Source of the DNA: a virus
Lineage: Duplodnaviria; Heunggongvirae; Uroviricota; Caudoviricetes
Reading direction: 5' to 3' (one strand)
Length of the DNA stretch: 36,745 nucleotides
Virus record (IMG/VR): IMGVR_UViG_2585427964_000003
Shown: in pieces, positions 6,781 to 33,929 of the stretch
How positions within the stretch are numbered: position 1 is the stretch's first letter
How the letters are laid out: the number at the start of each line of letters is the position of its first letter
The notes under the pieces: model-generated
Told to the model about the DNA's origin: nothing
The model's input: only the letters and a program-made list of their open reading frames with translations
Database searches by the model: none
Translations under genes and position numbers: made by a program

Positions 6781-6796
6781 CTGTCAAATCTGACAG
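6781..6796 (-). terminator. Hairpin CTGTCA-AATC-TGACAG, followed on the minus strand by AATTTTGG; putative terminator of the 6864..7556 cargo gene
   Basis: Perfect 6-bp inverted repeat with 4-nt loop about 70 nt downstream of the minus-strand stop at 6864; short stem and short U tract, so weak. Confidence 0.3.
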
Positions 6797-6863
6797 CCTG
6801 TTTTGAGCGAAGAGCGGACCTGAGATTGTGGTATGCTAATTTATGGGGAGCAGGTCAATTGTA

Positions 6864-7556
6864 TTAGTTATCTTTTTGCTTTTCTTTATCCCATTTCTTT
6901 GCAGTGGTCTGATACCACTCTTCACGTGCTCGTTGTTCCTCGGCTCTGTCACTTGAATTATAGTTGTCTGTTTTAATTTTTTTGCTTCCCTGGGAAATCG
7001 GCCTCCAGTCTTCTCTAATCTTTTTCATCTGCTCAGCTATCTGTGTCATTGGACTCCTTGCACCTAAGTAGCTAACCCCCTCGAAAGAAGCCATATCATA
7101 AGAATACTCATTCCGCTCTCTTTCAGTTGAGCCCGGCTGTTTAGACCAGCTAATACTAACAGAATAAACTTGATCTTTAATCTGGTCATACTTACAAAGA
7201 CTGCTGTTGAGGGAATGGCCGTTTTTCAATACGCTAACCTTGCTAAATGGTATACCTTTATTTTTTCTATGTTCTGCATTAACCAGTGGGGGATTAAATC
7301 CGACTTCAATATCATAGGCTGGGGCATTTCCGGTATTAGCAATATTGATATCAAAATAAAAAGCAGCCCAAGAATTTGGTTCAAGAGTCACAACGACATG
7401 AGGTTGAACTGATGCGTCAACCATCCTTTTTGTCTCGTCTGCTAATAGCCTTGTTACTCTCCACAAGAAAAATGTAGCAACTGCTGTTAGCAATGCTGCC
7501 AAAGCGGAGATAAGTGTACTTACTGTGTTTATATGCTCTGCGATAAATTCGATCAT
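6864..7556 (-). CDS. Hypothetical membrane-anchored protein (cargo in Z/fun-equivalent variable locus)
   Basis: 230-aa ORF with AAGGA Shine-Dalgarno 7 nt upstream of ATG; one N-terminal hydrophobic helix (VSTLISALAALLTAVATFFLW), then a soluble domain and a lysine/glutamate-rich C-terminus. Visibly AT-rich compared with flanking P2 genes. No family recognised by eye. Confidence 0.6.
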   Translation of the reverse strand: MIEFIAEHINTVSTLISALAALLTAVATFFLWRVTRLLADETKRMVDASVQPHVVVTLEPNSWAAFYFDINIANTGNAPAYDIEVGFNPPLVNAEHRKNKGIPFSKVSVLKNGHSLNSSLCKYDQIKDQVYSVSISWSKQPGSTERERNEYSYDMASFEGVSYLGARSPMTQIAEQMKKIREDWRPISQGSKKIKTDNYNSSDRAEEQRAREEWYQTTAKKWDKEKQKDN

Positions 7557-8047
7557 GAGTTGTCCTTGGGGGCGTACTAATTGTTTTCAATACTAAAATA
7601 GCGCCGAGCTTGAAAAATTGCACACTTATAGTTCGATTTACCTCAACAGTTAAGGCTTCAACTTCCCCCATGCACCTCACCCAGCCCAAGACTGTATGAG
7701 GTCTGACAAAGAACTTCCTGACACTTGAAAACGAGGCAACGGCTAGGGTTTCTCGTAGGGCAAGGATTGAATACGAAGCCTGTATATTGCTCCGCGAACA
7801 CTGCTGAGGGCAGTTTAAATGTTGGGCGTTTATGTAGCCTTTCACTCACCAGCATGAGTTCAATGTCTGTGAGTTACCGACAACAATATAAAGGGGGTGG
7901 CATCATCATATATCCAAGCTAGAGTCAAATCCTCTAACTGGTTTTATGATCAGTGTCAATTGTTTGATTATTAAACGTTTACGAAGCAGCACGGGAGCCA
8001 TATAACTAATGGGCAGGTATAAGCCTGTATCACGAGGAATCAGTAAA

Positions 8048-8227
8048 ATGGCTGATGATAAGACCAAAATCGGTACCCCTGACAATGATTTAATAAGTAT
8101 CAAACAGGATTACGAGAGACGTGATTGGGCTGAAAAGTTTGGAGTTAGCGAGGCCAAACTTGTTCAAGCCGTACAGGCTGTAGGTCATTCGGCTAAGAAA
8201 GTACAGGCATGGCTTAAAGACCATTAA
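8048..8227 (+). CDS. Small DUF3606-like protein
   Basis: MADDKTKIGTPDNDLISIKQDYERRDWAEKFGVSEAKLVQAVQAVGHSAKKVQAWLKDH; the pattern (basic N-term, Y-E-x-x-W-x-x-KFGVS, AVxxVGxSA) matches my recollection of DUF3606 proteins. ATG at 8048 has an AGGAA Shine-Dalgarno; the ORF-track start at 8009 is probably upstream of the real start. Confidence 0.55.
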   Translation: MADDKTKIGTPDNDLISIKQDYERRDWAEKFGVSEAKLVQAVQAVGHSAKKVQAWLKDH

Positions 8228-26869: not shown

Positions 26870-27016
26870 CGCCCGCTTCATGCAGGGCTTTAAATGCAGT
26901 GCAGCAGTAATGGTTAGAATGCGCCAGCACTGATGTTAGATACCAGAACTGGCATTTAAAAATGAATGCAAATAAATGCACCAAACTAATTACTTACTGA
27001 CAAAAAATAAGTAAAA

Positions 27017-27901
27017 TCAGGCGCAAGTTGGCATTGAGACCCCTTTCAGGGTATTAGGAATAATTATTTCAGGAGAAAAAATCATCACTTCCTCTCCAGA
27101 TTTTTTGAGATGTGCTGTATATTGCAATGAATACTCAACTTGCGGAAATCCATTATAAATATCTTTAATTTCCTTAGCGTTATCATAAGAAACAAGCCAA
27201 TTTGGGAAATTAATTTCTGTGAGTTTCTTCATAACCAATACATGGTCATCATGCTCATAAAAATTCCTGTAAAGCCCTTGCCCTTTAATATAGTAAGGAG
27301 GATCCAAATACAAAAGAATTTTATTTTTATCCACCTTTCCCATATTATCCATAAAATTCAAGGCATCAAGAAAATCCAAAGCATCCAGATTAGTTACTAC
27401 TATTCTTTGATTATAATTTGCTATCTTCTCAATTCTTGAAATTAAATCCGCCCTGTTAAAGCGAACATCCATTTTCCATTTTCCATTTTGTGATTTCCCG
27501 CCTATAACCCCCGCCTTGAGAATACCTGAACGATTTGTTCTATTTAAGAAAAACGCAGCAAAGCCAACCTCAAGCTTAGTAAACTCAGAAGGATTCGAAA
27601 TAACATAGCGATGAAAAGACCATTCATCCATATCTATCTTTGCTCGGCTAATAAGTCGGCAAAGCTCATCAGTATCACTAACAACAGATGACCAAAAAGA
27701 ATAAACAGCAAAATCTGCATCATTTATATAGATTTTACGGACATACTCTTCCAATAATAATTCTAAAGCCACCCCTGCACCACCAGCGTAAGGTTCTGCA
27801 TATGCTCCATCATTCAACGAGTTTTTTTCAATAACATCTTTTAAAAAGTAAGATAACTTACCTTTCCCGCCGGGGTATCTTAATGGAGTATAAAATTTCA
27901 T
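27017..27901 (-). CDS. Dam-class (D12 family) N6-adenine DNA methyltransferase
   Basis: 294-aa ORF with GAGGG Shine-Dalgarno; motifs YPGGKGKL near the N-terminus, PYAGGAG (SAM-binding FxGxG-like) and LDPPYY (catalytic DPPY). Strongly AT-rich; lies in the tin/old-equivalent position. Confidence 0.8.
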   Translation of the reverse strand: MKFYTPLRYPGGKGKLSYFLKDVIEKNSLNDGAYAEPYAGGAGVALELLLEEYVRKIYINDADFAVYSFWSSVVSDTDELCRLISRAKIDMDEWSFHRYVISNPSEFTKLEVGFAAFFLNRTNRSGILKAGVIGGKSQNGKWKMDVRFNRADLISRIEKIANYNQRIVVTNLDALDFLDALNFMDNMGKVDKNKILLYLDPPYYIKGQGLYRNFYEHDDHVLVMKKLTEINFPNWLVSYDNAKEIKDIYNGFPQVEYSLQYTAHLKKSGEEVMIFSPEIIIPNTLKGVSMPTCA

Positions 27902-27938
27902 AAATCCCTCTCATTCCTGATTTTGTAGTTTATCAGTT

Positions 27939-27958
27939 TCTGGACATCCATGTCCAGA
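27939..27958. promoter_or_regulatory. Perfect palindrome TCTGGACA-TCCA-TGTCCAGA upstream of the methyltransferase gene (candidate operator)
   Basis: 8-bp perfect inverted repeat with 4-nt spacer in the 69-bp gap between the two cargo genes, 38-57 nt upstream of the methyltransferase ATG. Confidence 0.4.
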
Positions 27959-27970
27959 TGTAGACAAATC

Positions 27971-29476
27971 TCACTCACTCCAAATAAGGCTTAATAACAA
28001 CTCAAAGTTATCCCACTCAGTGTTGACAGCCTCTTTTGAGGGAATTAAGTGTGGGTTATGTACATACTGCTGCAATGAACCATCATGTTTAGTTATTTGG
28101 CTCGAGAAAGTTATTACAGCCGTACATTGACTCCCCGTCATCTTTTTATTTTCCCGAAGGAAATTAGCACACATTTTAACCTTATCATGAAGCCCTGGAG
28201 TTCTATGTGGTTCCTTAAATTGTAACTTGTTTTCTTCAACAAAAGTGCTTACAGAGAGATCTATAAATATTCTCAACAATATTGAGATAGCATTAGGGGT
28301 GTTATCAAATGTCAGATGCGACTTAAGCTCATTAAATATTCTAGAGCATTTCTTATGCCCTCTAAAATTAAATTTCACATAAGATGGCACCAACACATTA
28401 CGATCTACTTTAGGAGGAGTTTTTCCCTTGTTTTTATTCTGTTCCGTGCCCGAAACTTTAGATTTACTCTCTTCTGTGCCTACATGTCTAGAATAATCAT
28501 CTTCCTGTTTATCCACACCTGTATTCTTTAAGGCATCACCTTCTGAAAGACCTACTTTCTTTACACTCACAGATGCATCATTTTTGTCAATAGAATCATG
28601 TTTTTTCTCTGTAAGAAAAGATTTAGGCTCCAGTAAACTCCACGGCTTATCTAAAAGAGATTCTGAAGGTTTTATTTTTTGTTCAATAATAAATGTAACC
28701 CTGTCATCTTGGCTACGAATCCTATTAACAGTAAAACAAGCCTTACCTTTATCATCCTCTTCAATCATTACATCTAAAATATTTTTTAATTGTGCACAAA
28801 AACGTTCATAAGGCTGATATGAGTATAGAACTCCATTAATGCTTTTTAAATTAAAATAATCCCTCACCTTTAAATCACCAAAAAGACGCGTGATGTTTGT
28901 GATTTTTAAAAGTCTTTTTTTAGCAATTATCTCTTTATATAAATCAGTATTGAACTCTATAAATGTAAGTATTTGATTACCAAATGACTGCTTACCCATC
29001 CTAGCCAGATGTCGTGCTTTTTCTGTTGCAGTCCATTCAACTCTTCCAACTCCAGCATTTTGACCAGTATGCTTTAAATTGACCCAATGCTCATATTCAT
29101 CATCGTCAAAAAGAACGCAGTTATCTATAACATTAATATCTTTAAGCTGAGTAATCTTAAGTTTTTCAAAAGCTTTCCGTGCTTTTTCTGTTGGTGCAAG
29201 TCTAGGAGAGTGTAAAAGTTTAAGGGCTGTAACTCGACGATTACCTTCAGCAACGACGAAAAAGCCAGATTCCTCTTCACTAGGATAAACTAATATGTTT
29301 TCAGACGGATCTAAACCTTTCGAAGCAATATCTTTAGCCAAGCGATAAATGCGGTCGTACTGCAAGTCAAGCATCTTGGCAATAGCATCACGCTGATTTT
29401 CTGCTGACGTCGGGAAACGAGGGTTATCAACATCCAAAAGTAACTTATTGATATTCATTGATTTTAGTTGATTCAT
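27971..29476 (-). CDS. ParB/Srx-fold nuclease-domain protein with long C-terminal extension (cargo gene)
   Basis: N-terminal region LLLDVDNPRF ... ILVYPSEEESGFFVVAEGNRRVTALKLL carries the ParB N-terminal domain signature (GxRR). A Lys/Glu/Ser-rich low-complexity linker is followed by a roughly 150-aa C-terminal domain of unrecognised type. Start chosen at ATG 29474-29476 (AGAGGA Shine-Dalgarno 8 nt upstream, 501 aa); the ORF track extends to 29545 (524 aa). AT-rich. Confidence 0.7.
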   Translation of the reverse strand: MNQLKSMNINKLLLDVDNPRFPTSAENQRDAIAKMLDLQYDRIYRLAKDIASKGLDPSENILVYPSEEESGFFVVAEGNRRVTALKLLHSPRLAPTEKARKAFEKLKITQLKDINVIDNCVLFDDDEYEHWVNLKHTGQNAGVGRVEWTATEKARHLARMGKQSFGNQILTFIEFNTDLYKEIIAKKRLLKITNITRLFGDLKVRDYFNLKSINGVLYSYQPYERFCAQLKNILDVMIEEDDKGKACFTVNRIRSQDDRVTFIIEQKIKPSESLLDKPWSLLEPKSFLTEKKHDSIDKNDASVSVKKVGLSEGDALKNTGVDKQEDDYSRHVGTEESKSKVSGTEQNKNKGKTPPKVDRNVLVPSYVKFNFRGHKKCSRIFNELKSHLTFDNTPNAISILLRIFIDLSVSTFVEENKLQFKEPHRTPGLHDKVKMCANFLRENKKMTGSQCTAVITFSSQITKHDGSLQQYVHNPHLIPSKEAVNTEWDNFELLLSLIWSE

Positions 29477-29832
29477 CAACATATCCTCTGTTGAATCTTT
29501 ATGATAAAAATTAATTATTTTTATCATAAATGATAGCGTAAACATAGTCTTATGAACGACATCAGCCCTGAAGCTTCAAAACTATCATTTACGTTTGCGA
29601 GGCACCATCTATCACATTGATTTATAATAAGTATCTTTATCTTCACTGCATTGCTCTCAAAAAATCACATAGATGGAAATTCCCCGTTGACACACTCCCA
29701 AGTGATGCAGATACATTTCAAGTGCTTCATACACATGATAACGGCTATCCCCCTAAATTCTGTGCGTTTCTTTTCCCTCCAGCACAAGGTTGAAATATCT
29801 TGCGTGCAGCTTTACTTTGTGAATCTTTGTCA

Positions 29833-32124
29833 TTATATCCGCGCCATTACTGTTGAGAATCCCGGCCACTCATCAGCGACCGGATACGTGAATTTTTTCC
29901 CGTCATAATTTACGGTCGCGCCACGCGCCAGCACCTCAAGCTCCCATCGTTGCGGCCTGATACCGTTCTGAGCGAGGTCAACGCGGATACGGGTAATTTG
30001 CAATCGTTCCGACCGGGTCAGTCTGGCCGACGGTGCTATTTCATGCGGTTTTAACGGGCTTCCGGCTCTTTGCTGACGATTTGGTGTTCTCAGTCCGTGT
30101 TTTAATGCGCCCCTGAGCGCCCTCACGACCTCCGGGTCATTCCATTCGATAACACCGTCATCAACCAGATTAAGCACTGCTGCGACGTGCTCAGAAGGTG
30201 TGGGAGCCGGTAACGAAGTATCACCACTGGTGAGCTTTCCACAGTTATTGACAGGACTCCGAGGCGCGGCGATGCCGCTTTTTAAAGTCAAAGGCTCAAC
30301 GACCGGAACTTTCAGCACAATGCGCCAGTCCGTCGTTCTGGTGATATGAATATGACGCGCGCCGAGATGCGGCGCGTAAATGCCGACCACTCTCTCGACT
30401 TCTTCCTCATACTCGTTAACGTCATCTGACGGGCTACGGGCGACCCTGACAGTCTGACAATCGCGCGGGACATTTGCCCCACCCTGCGCGCTGATATACA
30501 ACGCAAAATCACCACTGTCTGCGGCGGCGCGTGCAGCCTCGACGCGTTCGTCAAACTCATCAGCAATGCTGACGCCGCGAGGCAATTTGCGTAGCTCACG
30601 GTAAGCCCCCATTGTCGGCAGGCCAACCGTTTTAAATTGCGGGATGCGCCACGTTGACGCCCATGCGGTAACAGCCGCGGCAGTATCTTTAAGCGGCTTA
30701 CCGGTATCGTTATCGAGCTGACCATCCAGTGCATAGCCGTCGATATTTTTTGAAATGTATTTCGCGATATATCCCGCAGCACCGCCCCGGTTAAGGTGTT
30801 TTGCCTGAAAACGGTTTCGCGCAGCGCCTCTTTCGTCACCATCCTCTTTGAGCGCATAGCGACGCATGATTTCGATAATCTGGTTACGCTGGCGTGGATT
30901 ACAAAAAAGCATCATATGCCAGTGCGGCGTTCCGTCGTGGTGTGGCTCGACGACACGCAAACCGTAGACCTGTAAATCATTATCCTTGAATGCCGTGCGC
31001 ATCAGGCTCCAGATACGGCAGAGATAACGCTGCGCATCCTTTGGATTAAATGCCTCATCGTTCCAGCCGTGATTAAGCTGAACGGTTTTACTTTCGCCTT
31101 TTCCGACCTGACGTGTCGGGTGATACTTTGACGGCGCGGTCAGCGTGATAAACATCCCCACATCACCCTCTGCGGCGGCGTAACGCTCAATACCGGCAAT
31201 GGTGTTCATCAGCTCCATCCGGCGAATTTCAGGATTAGAAATACTGCCCATCACCTTACTGATAAGGTCGATGCGCTCGCCGGTTTCCCTGTTTTCAAGG
31301 TCACACGATTTAAGAAATTCCAGATTTGCCTGGCGGCGCGCACGCACATCACGAATGGCATGTTTACTGGCATAAGGAGAACGGTCTTTATTGACCTCCC
31401 CGACAGCTATCAGTAAAGCTTCATGCCAGCGCATACGCTGGCCTTTAAGCTGATGAGTCCACCACTCATCGTTAAACAGGCGGGCAATGGCAGAATATGC
31501 CTGCCTCGTGGTTATCTGTCCTTTACGGTATTTTTTCCAGTAGAGCGGGGAAATATTGAAAGCACGTGCAGCGCCAGCAACATGACCATACAGATGATCC
31601 TGCGCCTCATCCGTAAACAGTGATTCTTTTTCGCCATGCGCATCCACCCAGGCATCGCAGAGTTCCTCATACATCATGAAAAGCTGCGATGAAATACGGG
31701 CGGCAAACTTTTTCAGCTCCTTGTCATTCATCCCCGGCAGACGCGCATAGTGGTCACGCTCAGCCAGAAACAGCAACGACGCGTCGGTGTTCATTTCATG
31801 GCGCTGATTCACGCGCTCAATGCGCGGCCATAAACGACGCTGAAAAGTGGATGTGAGGAAATAAAACCCGTGTACCGGGCTTTTATTGCGCCGGATGTAG
31901 TCATAGCGTGAAGTAAACAGCGAGCGCAAAAAGTAAGGCAGGCGGTTAATCGTGGATAAAACCCCTTGCACCTGACGCATCTCGTCACGTGTAAGGGGTC
32001 TTTCGCGCCCGACGGCCTCGCGTGGCGCGTTCCATGCATAAGCACCGGTAAACGTCTTACCGGTGCCTGCAGCAAATGCTGACGTAGTTACGCAGGTGTA
32101 TTGCTCCTGGAAAGAATGACTCAT
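29833..32124 (-). CDS. A: Replication initiation endonuclease gpA (rolling-circle)
   Basis: 763-aa ORF MSHSFQEQYTCVTTSAFAAGTGKTFTGAYAWNAP...; size and position match P2 A (about 761 aa from memory). Confidence 0.92.
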   Translation of the reverse strand: MSHSFQEQYTCVTTSAFAAGTGKTFTGAYAWNAPREAVGRERPLTRDEMRQVQGVLSTINRLPYFLRSLFTSRYDYIRRNKSPVHGFYFLTSTFQRRLWPRIERVNQRHEMNTDASLLFLAERDHYARLPGMNDKELKKFAARISSQLFMMYEELCDAWVDAHGEKESLFTDEAQDHLYGHVAGAARAFNISPLYWKKYRKGQITTRQAYSAIARLFNDEWWTHQLKGQRMRWHEALLIAVGEVNKDRSPYASKHAIRDVRARRQANLEFLKSCDLENRETGERIDLISKVMGSISNPEIRRMELMNTIAGIERYAAAEGDVGMFITLTAPSKYHPTRQVGKGESKTVQLNHGWNDEAFNPKDAQRYLCRIWSLMRTAFKDNDLQVYGLRVVEPHHDGTPHWHMMLFCNPRQRNQIIEIMRRYALKEDGDERGAARNRFQAKHLNRGGAAGYIAKYISKNIDGYALDGQLDNDTGKPLKDTAAAVTAWASTWRIPQFKTVGLPTMGAYRELRKLPRGVSIADEFDERVEAARAAADSGDFALYISAQGGANVPRDCQTVRVARSPSDDVNEYEEEVERVVGIYAPHLGARHIHITRTTDWRIVLKVPVVEPLTLKSGIAAPRSPVNNCGKLTSGDTSLPAPTPSEHVAAVLNLVDDGVIEWNDPEVVRALRGALKHGLRTPNRQQRAGSPLKPHEIAPSARLTRSERLQITRIRVDLAQNGIRPQRWELEVLARGATVNYDGKKFTYPVADEWPGFSTVMARI

Positions 32125-33128
32125 TCACATACACCGGCATAGACACTACTGCAAACGGCTTTATCATTCGCCGAAGCCAGTAAATCAAACTGAGTACCCC
32201 CACGCGTTGTCATTGTCCAGTCATGGTAGGTTTCTATTCCGTATGCCTCGACTGTTACAATCTCAATACGACGTTCTGCGCGTAGCGGATCATGTGTGGA
32301 TGGGAAAAAAGTGGAATTTCCCCGACGGGAGCACGACGCAACCAGTCGTTCCCATTCAGCAACCCGTTTTATTTCCTCCGGCCACCGGCGAAAAATTTCT
32401 GCCAGTTCAGATTTACGGACATGAATACATGGCATACAACCAACACGGCCACACCCCTGCTGATATAACGGATTTGGCTTAATGTCATGTCTTCTGGCTA
32501 TTGCAAATACATCTTCATGCTTCCAGTGCAAAATCGGGCGATATACATGCAATCCGGGGGTGTTGTCTGCATCCTCTTCCCAGACAGGTAAAGCAGCGCG
32601 TGATGGCGATTCCTGAGCACGCACTCCCTGCCAGCTAATCACTTCCTCAAATTCATTGAGTAAAGGCAATATTACCTGAGAACGCACGGGCTCATGTTTC
32701 AGTTCAAATGTGCAAAATCTGGCTTTGGTTGATGGGAAACGCCCCTTCCACAGACACAAATCAAGAAACGGGATACCCGTTGGTTTGAGAATTTCCAGCG
32801 CACAACTGATGCGCTGGTGCGCTTCTTCTTCCGACATTCCACAATCGTTAACCAACAAATCAGGCCATTTGGTCTGGATAAACTTGCGCTTTGATTCAAT
32901 CCGGCAGGAAAAATCAGCTCTGACTCTTTTAATTGGGCCAAGCCGTTTTTCCAGATAATCCAGATATTTCATTGTCTGTGGATGTTCATGTCCCGTATCA
33001 GCAAAAACCGGCAATATGGGTACATTTTCTTCAATAGCGACAAGCCACTGAGCAAGGCTGTCCTTTCCACCTGAAACAAAAATAACATTGATGGTATTTT
33101 CAGTATGGCAACGAGCATCAGTAATCAT
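32121..33128 (-). CDS. PAPS reductase / DndC-like PP-loop ATP pyrophosphatase family protein
   Basis: 335-aa ORF with N-terminal PP-loop VIFVSGGKDS and a C-terminal cysteine cluster (GCGRVGCMPC). Start overlaps the orf83-like stop and its stop overlaps the A start (ATGA at both junctions). Confidence 0.75.
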   Translation of the reverse strand: MITDARCHTENTINVIFVSGGKDSLAQWLVAIEENVPILPVFADTGHEHPQTMKYLDYLEKRLGPIKRVRADFSCRIESKRKFIQTKWPDLLVNDCGMSEEEAHQRISCALEILKPTGIPFLDLCLWKGRFPSTKARFCTFELKHEPVRSQVILPLLNEFEEVISWQGVRAQESPSRAALPVWEEDADNTPGLHVYRPILHWKHEDVFAIARRHDIKPNPLYQQGCGRVGCMPCIHVRKSELAEIFRRWPEEIKRVAEWERLVASCSRRGNSTFFPSTHDPLRAERRIEIVTVEAYGIETYHDWTMTTRGGTQFDLLASANDKAVCSSVYAGVCE

Positions 33129-33403
33129 TCAGACGCTCCTCTGGAGAACGCCTCTGAACAACGCTTGCTGAGTTGCTCAACCTGCGCGTTTAAATCAGCA
33201 AAAGACTTTGCGCTTCCGGTCAGAATATCGTGATGCATCAGGCCGGAAACGAGCTGGCTTAATTTCGGGTAATAACCAACCACCGCCAGCCATTCCTGAC
33301 CGGCGTTTTTACCGCTTTCCGCTCTCTTTTTCTCGTGGAGAATAAACTGAAAGCTGTCACTGGTAACGACATAACGTTCGCCAATTTCGATACGAATACT
33401 CAT
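33125..33403 (-). CDS. P2 orf83-like early protein
   Basis: 92-aa ORF in the position of P2 orf83; coupled to neighbours by overlapping stop/start. Confidence 0.6.
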   Translation of the reverse strand: MSIRIEIGERYVVTSDSFQFILHEKKRAESGKNAGQEWLAVVGYYPKLSQLVSGLMHHDILTGSAKSFADLNAQVEQLSKRCSEAFSRGASE

Positions 33404-33624
33404 GCCATTCTCCGGTAATGCTTGTTTTTTGCTTCAAAGACTGACTGGCAGGAAACACAACGCGTGGCTGACGGATAAGCTGCACGACGGGCAGCAGGTA
33501 TTGGCGCGTCACACTCTTCGCAAACCAGCGCAGAAGCACCGCAATGTTTTACCCTTGCCGCGTTAATCTGGCGCTCCAGTAATTCAGCCTGTTGTTCCTG
33601 AATAAAATCTACGTTGTCCGGCAT
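33400..33624 (-). CDS. P2 orf82-like TraR/DksA-type zinc-finger protein
   Basis: 74-aa ORF with C4 pattern CGASALVCEEC ... CVSC typical of the TraR/DksA family; position matches P2 orf82. Confidence 0.7.
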   Translation of the reverse strand: MPDNVDFIQEQQAELLERQINAARVKHCGASALVCEECDAPIPAARRAAYPSATRCVSCQSVFEAKNKHYRRMA

Positions 33625-33929
33625 TACCAGCTCCTTTTATCGTTAAGTTTCCTGGACACATCAGCGCAATAACTGACGAGTTCTGTCGTTAATTTTGTCA
33701 GTTCATCCACTGAGGAGATTTGCTTGTGGAATACAGCGCGTTTAACAAGTAAATTGACCACATCAGACAGGAGGTTTAATTCATTCTGATAAATCGCGAT
33801 AACAGATTCAGTTATGTCGCGTTTTTCTTTATCAAGACAAAGTTGAATAAGAGACAAATCGCCATTTTCCATAACAGCGATTTTTAAGGCGTTATTCAGT
33901 AATACAACTGAATGAGAACAGGACATCAA
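33624..33929 (-). CDS. P2 orf81-like early protein
   Basis: 101-aa ORF; start overlaps the upstream stop (ATGA). True start could be an internal Met. Confidence 0.55.

Follow-up and report, generated by a model that had tools for sequence, protein, structure and literature searches.

A stretch of 36,745 nucleotides from a virus of the Caudoviricetes (IMG/VR record IMGVR_UViG_2585427964_000003), analysed here as a whole and referred to as the window, carries a PP-loop gene in its early region directly upstream of the replication gene A, a position that is empty in phage P2. The locus raises the question of what this gene encodes, where it comes from and what an enzyme of its kind would do beside a rolling-circle replication protein. 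The features that define the locus are as follows.

32121 to 33128, minus strand: PAPS-reductase-like PP-loop gene, homolog of phage 186 orf84, stop codon included (ORF list, Pfam, phrog_424 and synteny)
33125 to 33403, minus strand: orf83-like DUF5405 gene, 92 aa, the coupled upstream neighbour (Pfam PF17399, E=5e-14)
29833 to 32124, minus strand: gene A, rolling-circle replication endonuclease, 763 aa, the coupled downstream neighbour (Pfam Phage_GPA, E=1e-123)
33125 to 33128, minus strand: upstream ATGA overlap of the orf83-like TGA and the ATG of the orf84 homolog (coding-strand sequence)
32121 to 32124, minus strand: downstream ATGA overlap of the TGA of the orf84 homolog and the ATG of A (coding-strand sequence)
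33136 to 33141, minus strand: Shine-Dalgarno GAGGAG, 7 nt 5´ of the ATG of the orf84 homolog (sequence)

The 335-aa reading frame runs from 33128 to 32121 on the minus strand, with the ATG at 33128..33126 and the TGA at 32123..32121 (window ORF list); its SGGKDS motif and the ATGA overlaps at both ends, reported in a preliminary description of this DNA, are borne out. The junction with A reads GCCGGTGTATGTGAATGA and has the same letters in the window, in Yersinia phage P37 and in phage 186. Inspection of the window sequence revealed no good Shine-Dalgarno ahead of the A ATG. A DUF5405 gene, a DksA/TraR zinc-finger protein and A are the neighbours of the gene, whose GC content (46.4%) matches that of the small early genes (46.0%) and not that of the hotspot cargo (35%), in agreement with the backbone-like composition proposed earlier. 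No promoter or terminator of its own could be assigned, since consensus matches did not exceed the shuffled expectation and none lies upstream on the strand of the gene. Lying in the early operon and coupled on both sides, the gene is therefore expected to be made early, together with the nickase A; the early-operon place and the translational coupling to A, also proposed before, accord with the ATGA geometry and with the record of phage 186.

At the level of the gene, its place and the coupling to A nothing is new, since all three are textbook knowledge for phage 186. 186 Orf84 (CP84; NP_052288.1) has the same length and position and shares 76% amino acid identity over residues 2–335; the P37 homolog, in the same position, shares 82%. 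The protein matches PHROG 424 (phrog_424, E=7e-86), and a 100% identical protein from E. coli RS571 is already annotated (RefSeq WP_001600141.1). As in 186, P37 and many Enterobacterales prophages, the gene is placed between an orf83-like DUF5405 gene and A with the same ATGA coupling. According to the 186 record, translation of A appears to need translation through the end of orf84, and the terminator tM1 sits early in A. The preliminary description did not recognize the gene as the long-known orf84 of phage 186.

In contrast to 186, the window copy sits in a Wphi/P2-type early region, with flanks 97–100% identical to Wphi, and is joined to a P37-type A N-terminus. Wphi-type phages lack the gene, and comparison of the junctions delimits the exchanged segment.

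32088 to 33149, minus strand: segment standing in place of 42 bp of Wphi, comprising the last ~6 orf83 codons, all of the gene and ~12 codons at the start of A (blastn and junction comparison)

The first ~12 A codons of this segment encode the P37-type N-terminus (MSHSFQEQYTCV). The absence from P2 claimed earlier holds for P2-type phages, as 71 P2-like phage records match the flanks only and not the gene. Within E. coli the gene is rare and accessory, being present in 44 genomes compared with 1625 that carry this A allele. Among the 80 most similar viral loci, 63 show a gene A homolog directly downstream, and family members also occur in phages without A; the family is widespread, with 5826 proteins from the homolog search and 308 clusters at 50% identity. 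A PD-Lambda-5 pair is also found in the window, about 300 bp past gene A. E. coli RS571 carries the identical gene next to different hotspot cargo, and a functional tie between the pair and the orf84 homolog was rejected on that ground.

The fold of the protein is assigned by Pfam PF01507 (PAPS_reduct), which matches residues 15–236 over model positions 3–174 of 175 with E=5e-35 and 121.4 bits against a gathering threshold of 22.5, as the preliminary description had anticipated. Together with a dN/dS of about 0.05–0.08 against the P37 and 186 alleles, which indicates strong purifying selection, this match rules out a chance ORF. The catalytic motifs are kept across the 308 clusters. Four elements of the protein were mapped.

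33057 to 33074, minus strand: PP-loop SGGKDS, residues 19–24, the ATP-pyrophosphatase signature (conservation of 90% or more at every position among 73 family members)
32712 to 32714, minus strand: invariant Cys139 (RFCT), at the CC-pair position of APS reductases (100% conserved)
32427 to 32438, minus strand: Cys231-Met-Pro-Cys234 (GCMPC), by alignment the counterpart of the Fe-S CxxC in APS reductases
32124 to 32153, minus strand: flexible C-terminal tail with Cys326 and invariant Cys334, ending ..CSSVYAGVCE (conservation and pLDDT)

We read the sequence as that of a catalytically intact ATP pyrophosphatase with a PP-loop and the PAPS-reductase fold. Conservation among the cysteines is found at C139, C231, C234, C326 and C334. 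C231 (100%) and C234 (98%) align with GCAPC of 7lhr and GCEPC of 2goy. C139 is a single Cys where APS reductases of the Fe-S type have the CC pair of their CC...CxxC ligands for a 4Fe-4S cluster; we read it as the putative counterpart of that pair from the surroundings of the 7lhr phmmer alignment rather than from a direct alignment. C125, a candidate fourth ligand, is 80% conserved. The C-terminal Cys cluster described earlier is accurate in part only: the CxxC lies mid-protein, and C226, which makes the motif cluster-like in the window protein, is Met in most relatives. An extra conserved C-terminal region of ~95 aa has no counterpart in CysH. pLDDT drops to 59–73 in the tail alone; the tail sequence is kept in every P2/186-type allele examined, and ..YGLCE closes the family consensus. 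Judged from APS reductase and DndC, C139 and C231xxC234 probably hold an Fe-S cluster, with a reactive C334 on the flexible tail.

Among PADLOC models, which carry no curated cut-off, SspD gives the best match (2.7e-21), followed by BrxP (8e-13) and DndC (1e-7); the best SspD stretch is partial, covering model positions 73–216 of 277. These ATP pyrophosphatases of DNA phosphorothioation systems share with the window protein the superfamily, the SGGKDS PP-loop and cysteines compatible with an Fe-S cluster, whereas the window protein is phage-encoded and stands alone. BrxP of BREX type 4, whose PAPS-reductase domain comes fused to a DUF4007/BrxA-like part and is encoded in a BREX operon, was rejected: its 45 bits cover model positions 212–336 of 779, DUF4007 is missing, and PglZ, BrxC and BrxL are not found nearby. 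The term DndC-like, used in the preliminary description, stands for resemblance only, because the DndC equivalog TIGR03183 scores 21.3 bits against 290.4, over residues 132–209 only, and DndD/E partners are missing; the SGGKDS motif is also found in DndC (PMC6435447). No DndD/DndE, SspB/SspC, DUF4007 protein or cysteine desulfurase is linked to the window gene. Across 53 loci with 103 neighbours, ABC-ATPase or DndE families do not recur and SspB/C-like neighbours are not found.

The relatives outside the P2/186 backbone may point to DNA. In unrelated temperate phages the family gene adjoins DNA methyltransferases, Mom or ParB-like genes, and its neighbours are enriched for these and for replication and recombination genes, not for translation genes; the methyltransferase linkage, which argues by association only, is absent from the P2/186 backbone. 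The distant viral loci were gathered with an alignment in which a distant member came first, single-protein queries having returned few loci. Methyltransferases were scored by Pfam on pooled neighbour sets because phmmer with four methyltransferase seeds (8 hits versus 17 by Pfam) was too insensitive. The control methyltransferase count, which comes from the best 25 of 73 families, is a lower bound; with four more methyltransferases hidden in the rest, p would be 0.008. IbrA, which we take to be a PAPS_reduct plus DUF3440 protein with a ParB-like partner, IbrB, in E. coli prophage-like elements, offers a partial parallel: in non-P2 backbones a ParB-HTH gene lies ahead of close relatives and overlaps them, whereas the P2/186 arrangement has no ParB-like partner, and in the window protein DUF3440 is not detected at E<=1, nor does a ParB-like gene adjoin in the window. 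In a Vibrio crassostreae podovirus, a fusion of a PAPS domain with Dam (p0018), together with an adjacent co-transferred gene, allows the phage to evade Dnd (Piel et al., bioRxiv 10.1101/2021.05.05.442762). There too a PAPS-reductase-fold phage domain is tied to a DNA methyltransferase, as the orf84 family often adjoins methyltransferases elsewhere; however, the PAPS domain of the fusion is short (aa 4–175), compared with a stand-alone protein of 335 aa with a conserved C-terminal region.

The conserved catalytic motifs, the SspD-like match, the methyltransferase, Mom and ParB-like linkage and the anti-Dnd PAPS precedent indirectly favour a role in DNA or nucleotide modification or in anti-defence. 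Our leading reading, tentative and somewhat short of even chances, is that the orf84 homolog is an early-made adenylating enzyme of the DndC/SspD kind, probably dependent on Fe-S, whose action on phage DNA would counter host defence. The early lytic operon cox-B-orf80..83-orf84 homolog-A would be transcribed as a unit. On replicating phage DNA the enzyme, like DndC and SspD, would adenylate a target. Sulfur would then be passed on, with host IscS as the likely donor, so that phage DNA is marked or the phosphorothioate- or modification-dependent restriction of the host is subverted. Such an enzyme would be dispensable and would matter only on hosts with the matching defence. To our knowledge, the DNA of 186 and of P2-like phages is not on record as modified. 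Dispensability had been named in the preliminary description as a sign against a role of this kind, and this sign is already half present, since the 186 record states that orf84 is non-essential and that 186 grows without it, which concerns laboratory growth only. A lone enzyme would need its own DNA recognition, because DndD/DndE or SspB/SspC are not nearby and most hosts lack them; the Pfam search, however, detected no DNA-binding domain. In a bolder form of the DNA-directed reading, which we consider a long shot, the protein would be a self-sufficient sulfur-modifying enzyme, phosphorothioating or base-thiolating, whose substrate is the rolling-circle intermediate that A leaves nicked or single-stranded, with A in the role that the SspB nickase has for SspD. 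The coupling, conserved at the nucleotide level across A proteins of 28–60% identity, would then mark a functional pair, and the P2/186-type virion DNA of carriers would be modified in a way that has escaped notice and that overcomes restriction, phosphorothioate-sensing or other.

A PP-loop adenylating enzyme could also have a target that is not DNA. It might thiolate a base in tRNA or rRNA, in the manner of TtuA, ThiI or MnmA, or act on a protein, a free nucleotide or a signalling molecule of immunity, with the phage gaining from retuned translation or a blunted nucleotide-based defence. After CysH and APS reductases, the nearest solved structures, the structural neighbours are FAD synthase, TtuA (an Fe-S tRNA thiolase), CysD, GMP synthase, TilS, NcsA and Cap9 (CBASS-associated), in favour of such a target. 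A Pfam search detected no DNA-binding domain in the window protein, and the lack of Dnd/Ssp partners fits as well. The profile matches nevertheless favour the DNA-modifying branch (SspD, BrxP, DndC), and the neighbours elsewhere are enriched for DNA methyltransferases, Mom, ParB-like and replication or recombination genes rather than for translation genes; we regard a non-DNA target as unlikely, if far from negligible. Longer family members bring no informative fusion, as they contain PAPS_reduct only; the single exception, a fusion with VRR-NUC, may be an artefact of ORF calling.

That the prophage uses the gene to shield its lysogen, through defence or superinfection exclusion and for instance within a phosphorothioate-type module on host DNA, is quite improbable. 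The similarity of the protein to the defence components SspD, BrxP and DndC, the known carriage of defence cargo by P2-like prophages and the nearness of PD-Lambda-5 to gene A would suit this role, but the gene lies inside the early lytic operon and not in the hotspot, has backbone-like GC and no promoter above chance, and is linked to no restriction or ATPase partner across loci.

An auxiliary metabolic gene, that is, a true assimilatory PAPS/APS reductase raising sulfite and cysteine during infection or lysogeny, has a very slim chance. In enzymes of the CysH type the PP motif is degenerate and the ligand is (P)APS, and ECG[LI]H is the C-terminal catalytic motif of CysH and APS reductase. 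The window protein differs in its ATP-type PP-loop and its extra C-terminal region, lacks ECG[LI]H at its C-terminus and falls below every curated cut-off. Membership of CysH (NF002537, 67.4 against 154; TIGR00434, 46.7 against 165.1; TIGR02057, 39.9 against 254.2), of APS reductase (TIGR02055, 53.1 against 235.3) and of DndC was rejected because all NCBIfam scores are far under the cut-offs. The gene also lies in a repressed early lytic operon without its own promoter, and E. coli already has cysH. In favour of the assimilatory role are the nearest solved structures, which are CysH and APS reductases, several database records with the name cysH or PAPS reductase, and the idea of a sulfate assimilation moron (PMC2920897, PMC9144972).

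Least probable of all is that the reading frame serves mainly to be translated, so that ribosomes reach A, whose own initiation is poor, and premature termination is prevented, with enzyme activity incidental: the 186 record on A translation and tM1, the weak Shine-Dalgarno before A and the nucleotide-identical ATGA overlap would fit, but Wphi-type phages couple A with orf83 alone, and the dN/dS, the motifs kept in 308 clusters and the family members in phages without A argue against it.

Databases routinely mislabel this widespread phage PAPS-reductase-like family as cysH or sulfate assimilation, but the evidence from motifs, selection and neighbourhoods speaks against such naming and in favour of a role directed at DNA and probably serving counter-defence. 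Few systems make the function of the family as easy to test as the genetics of P2/186 in E. coli. If the DNA-directed reading is true, the family would represent a new class of phage DNA-modification or anti-phosphorothioate-defence enzyme, and many annotations would be corrected.

The 335-aa ORF with the PP-loop SGGKDS (residues 19–24) and the ATGA overlaps at both of its ends, which were reported in the preliminary description, are confirmed, with the gene running on the minus strand from 33128 to 32121:

33128-32121, minus strand: PAPS-like gene, 335 aa (ATG at 33128, TGA ending at 32121; ORF list)
33125-33128, minus strand: ATGA overlap of the PAPS-like gene start with the orf83-like stop (coding-strand sequence)
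32121-32124, minus strand: ATGA overlap of the PAPS-like gene stop with the gene A start (coding-strand sequence)

The coupled neighbours are a 92-aa DUF5405 (orf83-like) gene upstream and the 763-aa gene A (Pfam Phage_GPA, E=1e-123) downstream. A GAGGAG Shine-Dalgarno lies 7 nt 5´ of the PAPS-like gene start, and no comparable Shine-Dalgarno precedes the gene A start. The gene belongs to the early operon, from which no promoter- or terminator-like sites above shuffled expectation separate it. Its GC content (46.4%) resembles that of the small early genes (46.0%) rather than that of the hotspot cargo (35%), which bears out the backbone-like composition noted previously. The orf81-like (33624–33929, minus) and orf83-like (33125–33403, minus) proteins both match Pfam DUF5405 (E=8e-30 and 5e-14, respectively), so the operon contains two small paralogs, which flank a DksA/TraR zinc-finger gene.

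The protein matches Pfam PAPS_reduct over the entire domain (E=5e-35), in agreement with the fold assigned in the preliminary description, which had suggested this profile search, and PHROG 424 (E=7e-86). A tblastn search of deposited phages revealed homologs at the same position, with amino acid identities of 82% for Yersinia phage P37 and for a 'Peduovirus P2' record, and of 76% over residues 2–335 for phage 186; an annotated copy in E. coli RS571, WP_001600141.1, is 100% identical. The curated 186 record names the gene orf84 ('unknown function; not essential'), states that A protein translation 'appears' to need translation to the end of orf84, and places terminator tM1 early in gene A. Neither the gene itself nor its position or coupling to A is therefore new, and the gene is a member of an annotated family.

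Surveying P2-like genomes, as had also been suggested, shows that the PAPS-like gene is accessory: 71 records of P2-like phages, among them Wphi, L-413C and fiAA91-ss, match the flanks only. The gene A allele of the window occurs in 1625 of 5426 complete E. coli genomes (with 80% or more of the query matched) and the PAPS-like gene in only 44, adjoining the replication endonuclease every time. Window positions 33149..32088 stand in place of 42 bp of Wphi, which alters about six last codons of orf83 and about 12 first codons of A, the latter giving a P37-type N-terminus. Since the junction GCCGGTGTATGTGAATGA is identical across the window, P37 and 186, sequence comparison indicates that the gene moves between P2/186-type phages as a cassette bringing its own coupled junctions. 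About 300 bp 3´ of gene A, the hotspot carries as its cargo a gene pair of 35% GC that matches the PD-Lambda-5 defence system:

within 27017-29545, minus strand: PD-Lambda-5_A, 524 aa, E=6e-168, no Pfam domain
within 27017-29545, minus strand: PD-Lambda-5_B, D12-class adenine methyltransferase, 294 aa, E=1e-121

When the RS571 hotspot (NZ_CP034389, 14649–17713) is compared with window 27000–29800, the identical PAPS-like gene lies beside different cargo (one gene for an Old-like ATP-dependent nuclease, one hypothetical gene and one DUF3850 pseudogene), which indicates that hotspot turnover is independent of orf84.

A word-indexed search found 5826 homologs, and an exhaustive search of 50%-identity representatives found 308 clusters at E<1e-30, mostly aligned end to end. 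In alignments of 73–120 diverse members, no PP-loop position falls below 90% conservation. Of the cysteines, C139, C231 and C334 are invariant, and conservation is 98% for C234, 80–90% for C326 and 80% for C125, while position C226 is mostly Met in relatives. Comparing the alleles of the window, P37 and 186 gives dN/dS values of 0.045–0.082, which reflect purifying selection. The conserved motifs and low dN/dS thus identify an enzyme under selection that is predicted to be catalytically intact, and argue against both a degenerate PP-loop and a mere translated spacer. Several records label family members 'cysH'. A full-length homolog (31% identical) in Escherichia phage phi458 (OP434518.1, 3534–4694) is labelled 'putative transcriptional regulator', probably a misannotation. 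A 617-aa ORF in another locus (L104, 4659–6512) joins PAPS_reduct to a C-terminal VRR-NUC nuclease domain, which may be a genuine fusion or may result from an overlooked stop codon or a frameshift.

Scores against the curated NCBIfam models all fall far below the cut-offs, for CysH (67 versus 154), APS reductase (53 versus 235) and DndC (21 versus 290). Sulfonucleotide reductases have a degenerate PP motif and a C-terminal ECG[LI]H, whereas the PAPS-like protein has the ATP-type SGGKDS, exactly as in DndC, and terminates in ..YAGVCE. Of the defence-system models, SspD gives the best match (2.7e-21, over part of the model), ahead of BrxP (8e-13) and DndC (1e-7); a Pfam search found no DUF3440 (IbrA) or DUF4007 (BrxP) domain.

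A gene A homolog (28–100% identity) lies immediately 3´ in 63 of the 80 closest IMG/VR loci and is absent within the fetched flank in the other 17, several of which are evidently other phage backbones. On two non-P2 backbones, a ParB-HTH gene precedes the PAPS-like gene: in L025 (5099–6004) it runs 4 nt into a copy with 78% identity, and in L016 (4683–5468) it lies two genes upstream of a 77%-identical copy, pairings that recall DndB-DndC and IbrB-IbrA. Distant loci were added, all loci were collapsed to 53 representatives at 75% identity, and genes were called and the pooled neighbour sets scanned with Pfam. The PAPS-like genes are associated with DNA-modification genes: the 103 same-strand neighbours at ±1–2 genes include 17 DNA methyltransferases (8 C5, 4 D12, 4 N6/N4 and 1 MT-A70) and one Mom, and the ±1 neighbours alone (n=55) include seven methyltransferases and Mom. 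Control genes at ±4–8 (n=130) include at least three methyltransferases (Fisher p=2e-4; p=0.008 if the control held four more among its unlisted singleton families). The Mom-family gene (Pfam E=1e-67) directly adjoins the PAPS-like gene on one viral contig (55 neighbours, alignment A4); this family performs tRNA-dependent adenine hypermodification. Annotations agree with the linkage: in phiE125 the cytosine methylase gp56 overlaps gp57, in Rivra the PAPS-like gene stands between two methyltransferases, and in Parlo a dam gene is two genes away with an ASCH gene close by. In all three, the PAPS-like gene is in the early operon, 3´ of the repressor/cro region. ASCH/PUA-like genes recur nearby: in P37, gene A is followed by an ASCH gene and, after it, a C5 methyltransferase (6793–8005 of its locus), Serratia phage Parlo has ASCH five genes downstream (7673–8101), and the RS571 prophage has its DUF3850 pseudogene 3´ of gene A; the ±4–8 control set holds at least two ASCH matches.

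Older genome papers took such genes for sulfate-assimilation morons (PMC2920897, PMC9144972). Our literature search turned up no experiments on the Orf84 family itself. The transfer of two phage-specific genes, a PAPS-domain::Dam fusion and a gene of unknown function, allowed a related vibriophage to escape host Dnd (Piel et al., bioRxiv 10.1101/2021.05.05.442762), and a 2026 NAR paper that found PAPS reductases in Aca-regulated operons proposed an anti-defence role. The ATP pyrophosphatase activity of DndC depends on its 4Fe-4S cluster (PMC6435447).

By analogy, we tentatively propose an adenylating, Fe-S, sulfur-transferring enzyme that acts on phage DNA and evades restriction. The protein would bind ATP and adenylate its substrate; an Fe-S cluster may sit on C139 and the CxxC, with or without C125, as in APS reductase/DndC, and sulfur, probably supplied by host IscS, would be carried by C334 on a flexible tail. 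Replicating phage DNA would be the substrate, and the benefit would be escape from phosphorothioate-dependent or other modification-dependent restriction. The cautious interpretation in the preliminary description is partly supported, but the dispensability of 186 orf84 and its coupling to A were already on record.

The main rival, identical chemistry on a non-DNA substrate (tRNA, a nucleotide or a signalling molecule), is rather unlikely. That the gene shields the lysogen as a defence is improbable and is contradicted by specific results of the analysis. A CysH-type metabolic enzyme is slightly more doubtful still, given the CysH score, SGGKDS and the ..YAGVCE end. A purely translated leader is the hardest to credit, against the conserved motifs and dN/dS. 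The remaining probability lies outside these readings. The value of the analysis lies in the question of what the 186 orf84 family does, and in the evidence that 'cysH' is a mislabel for it.
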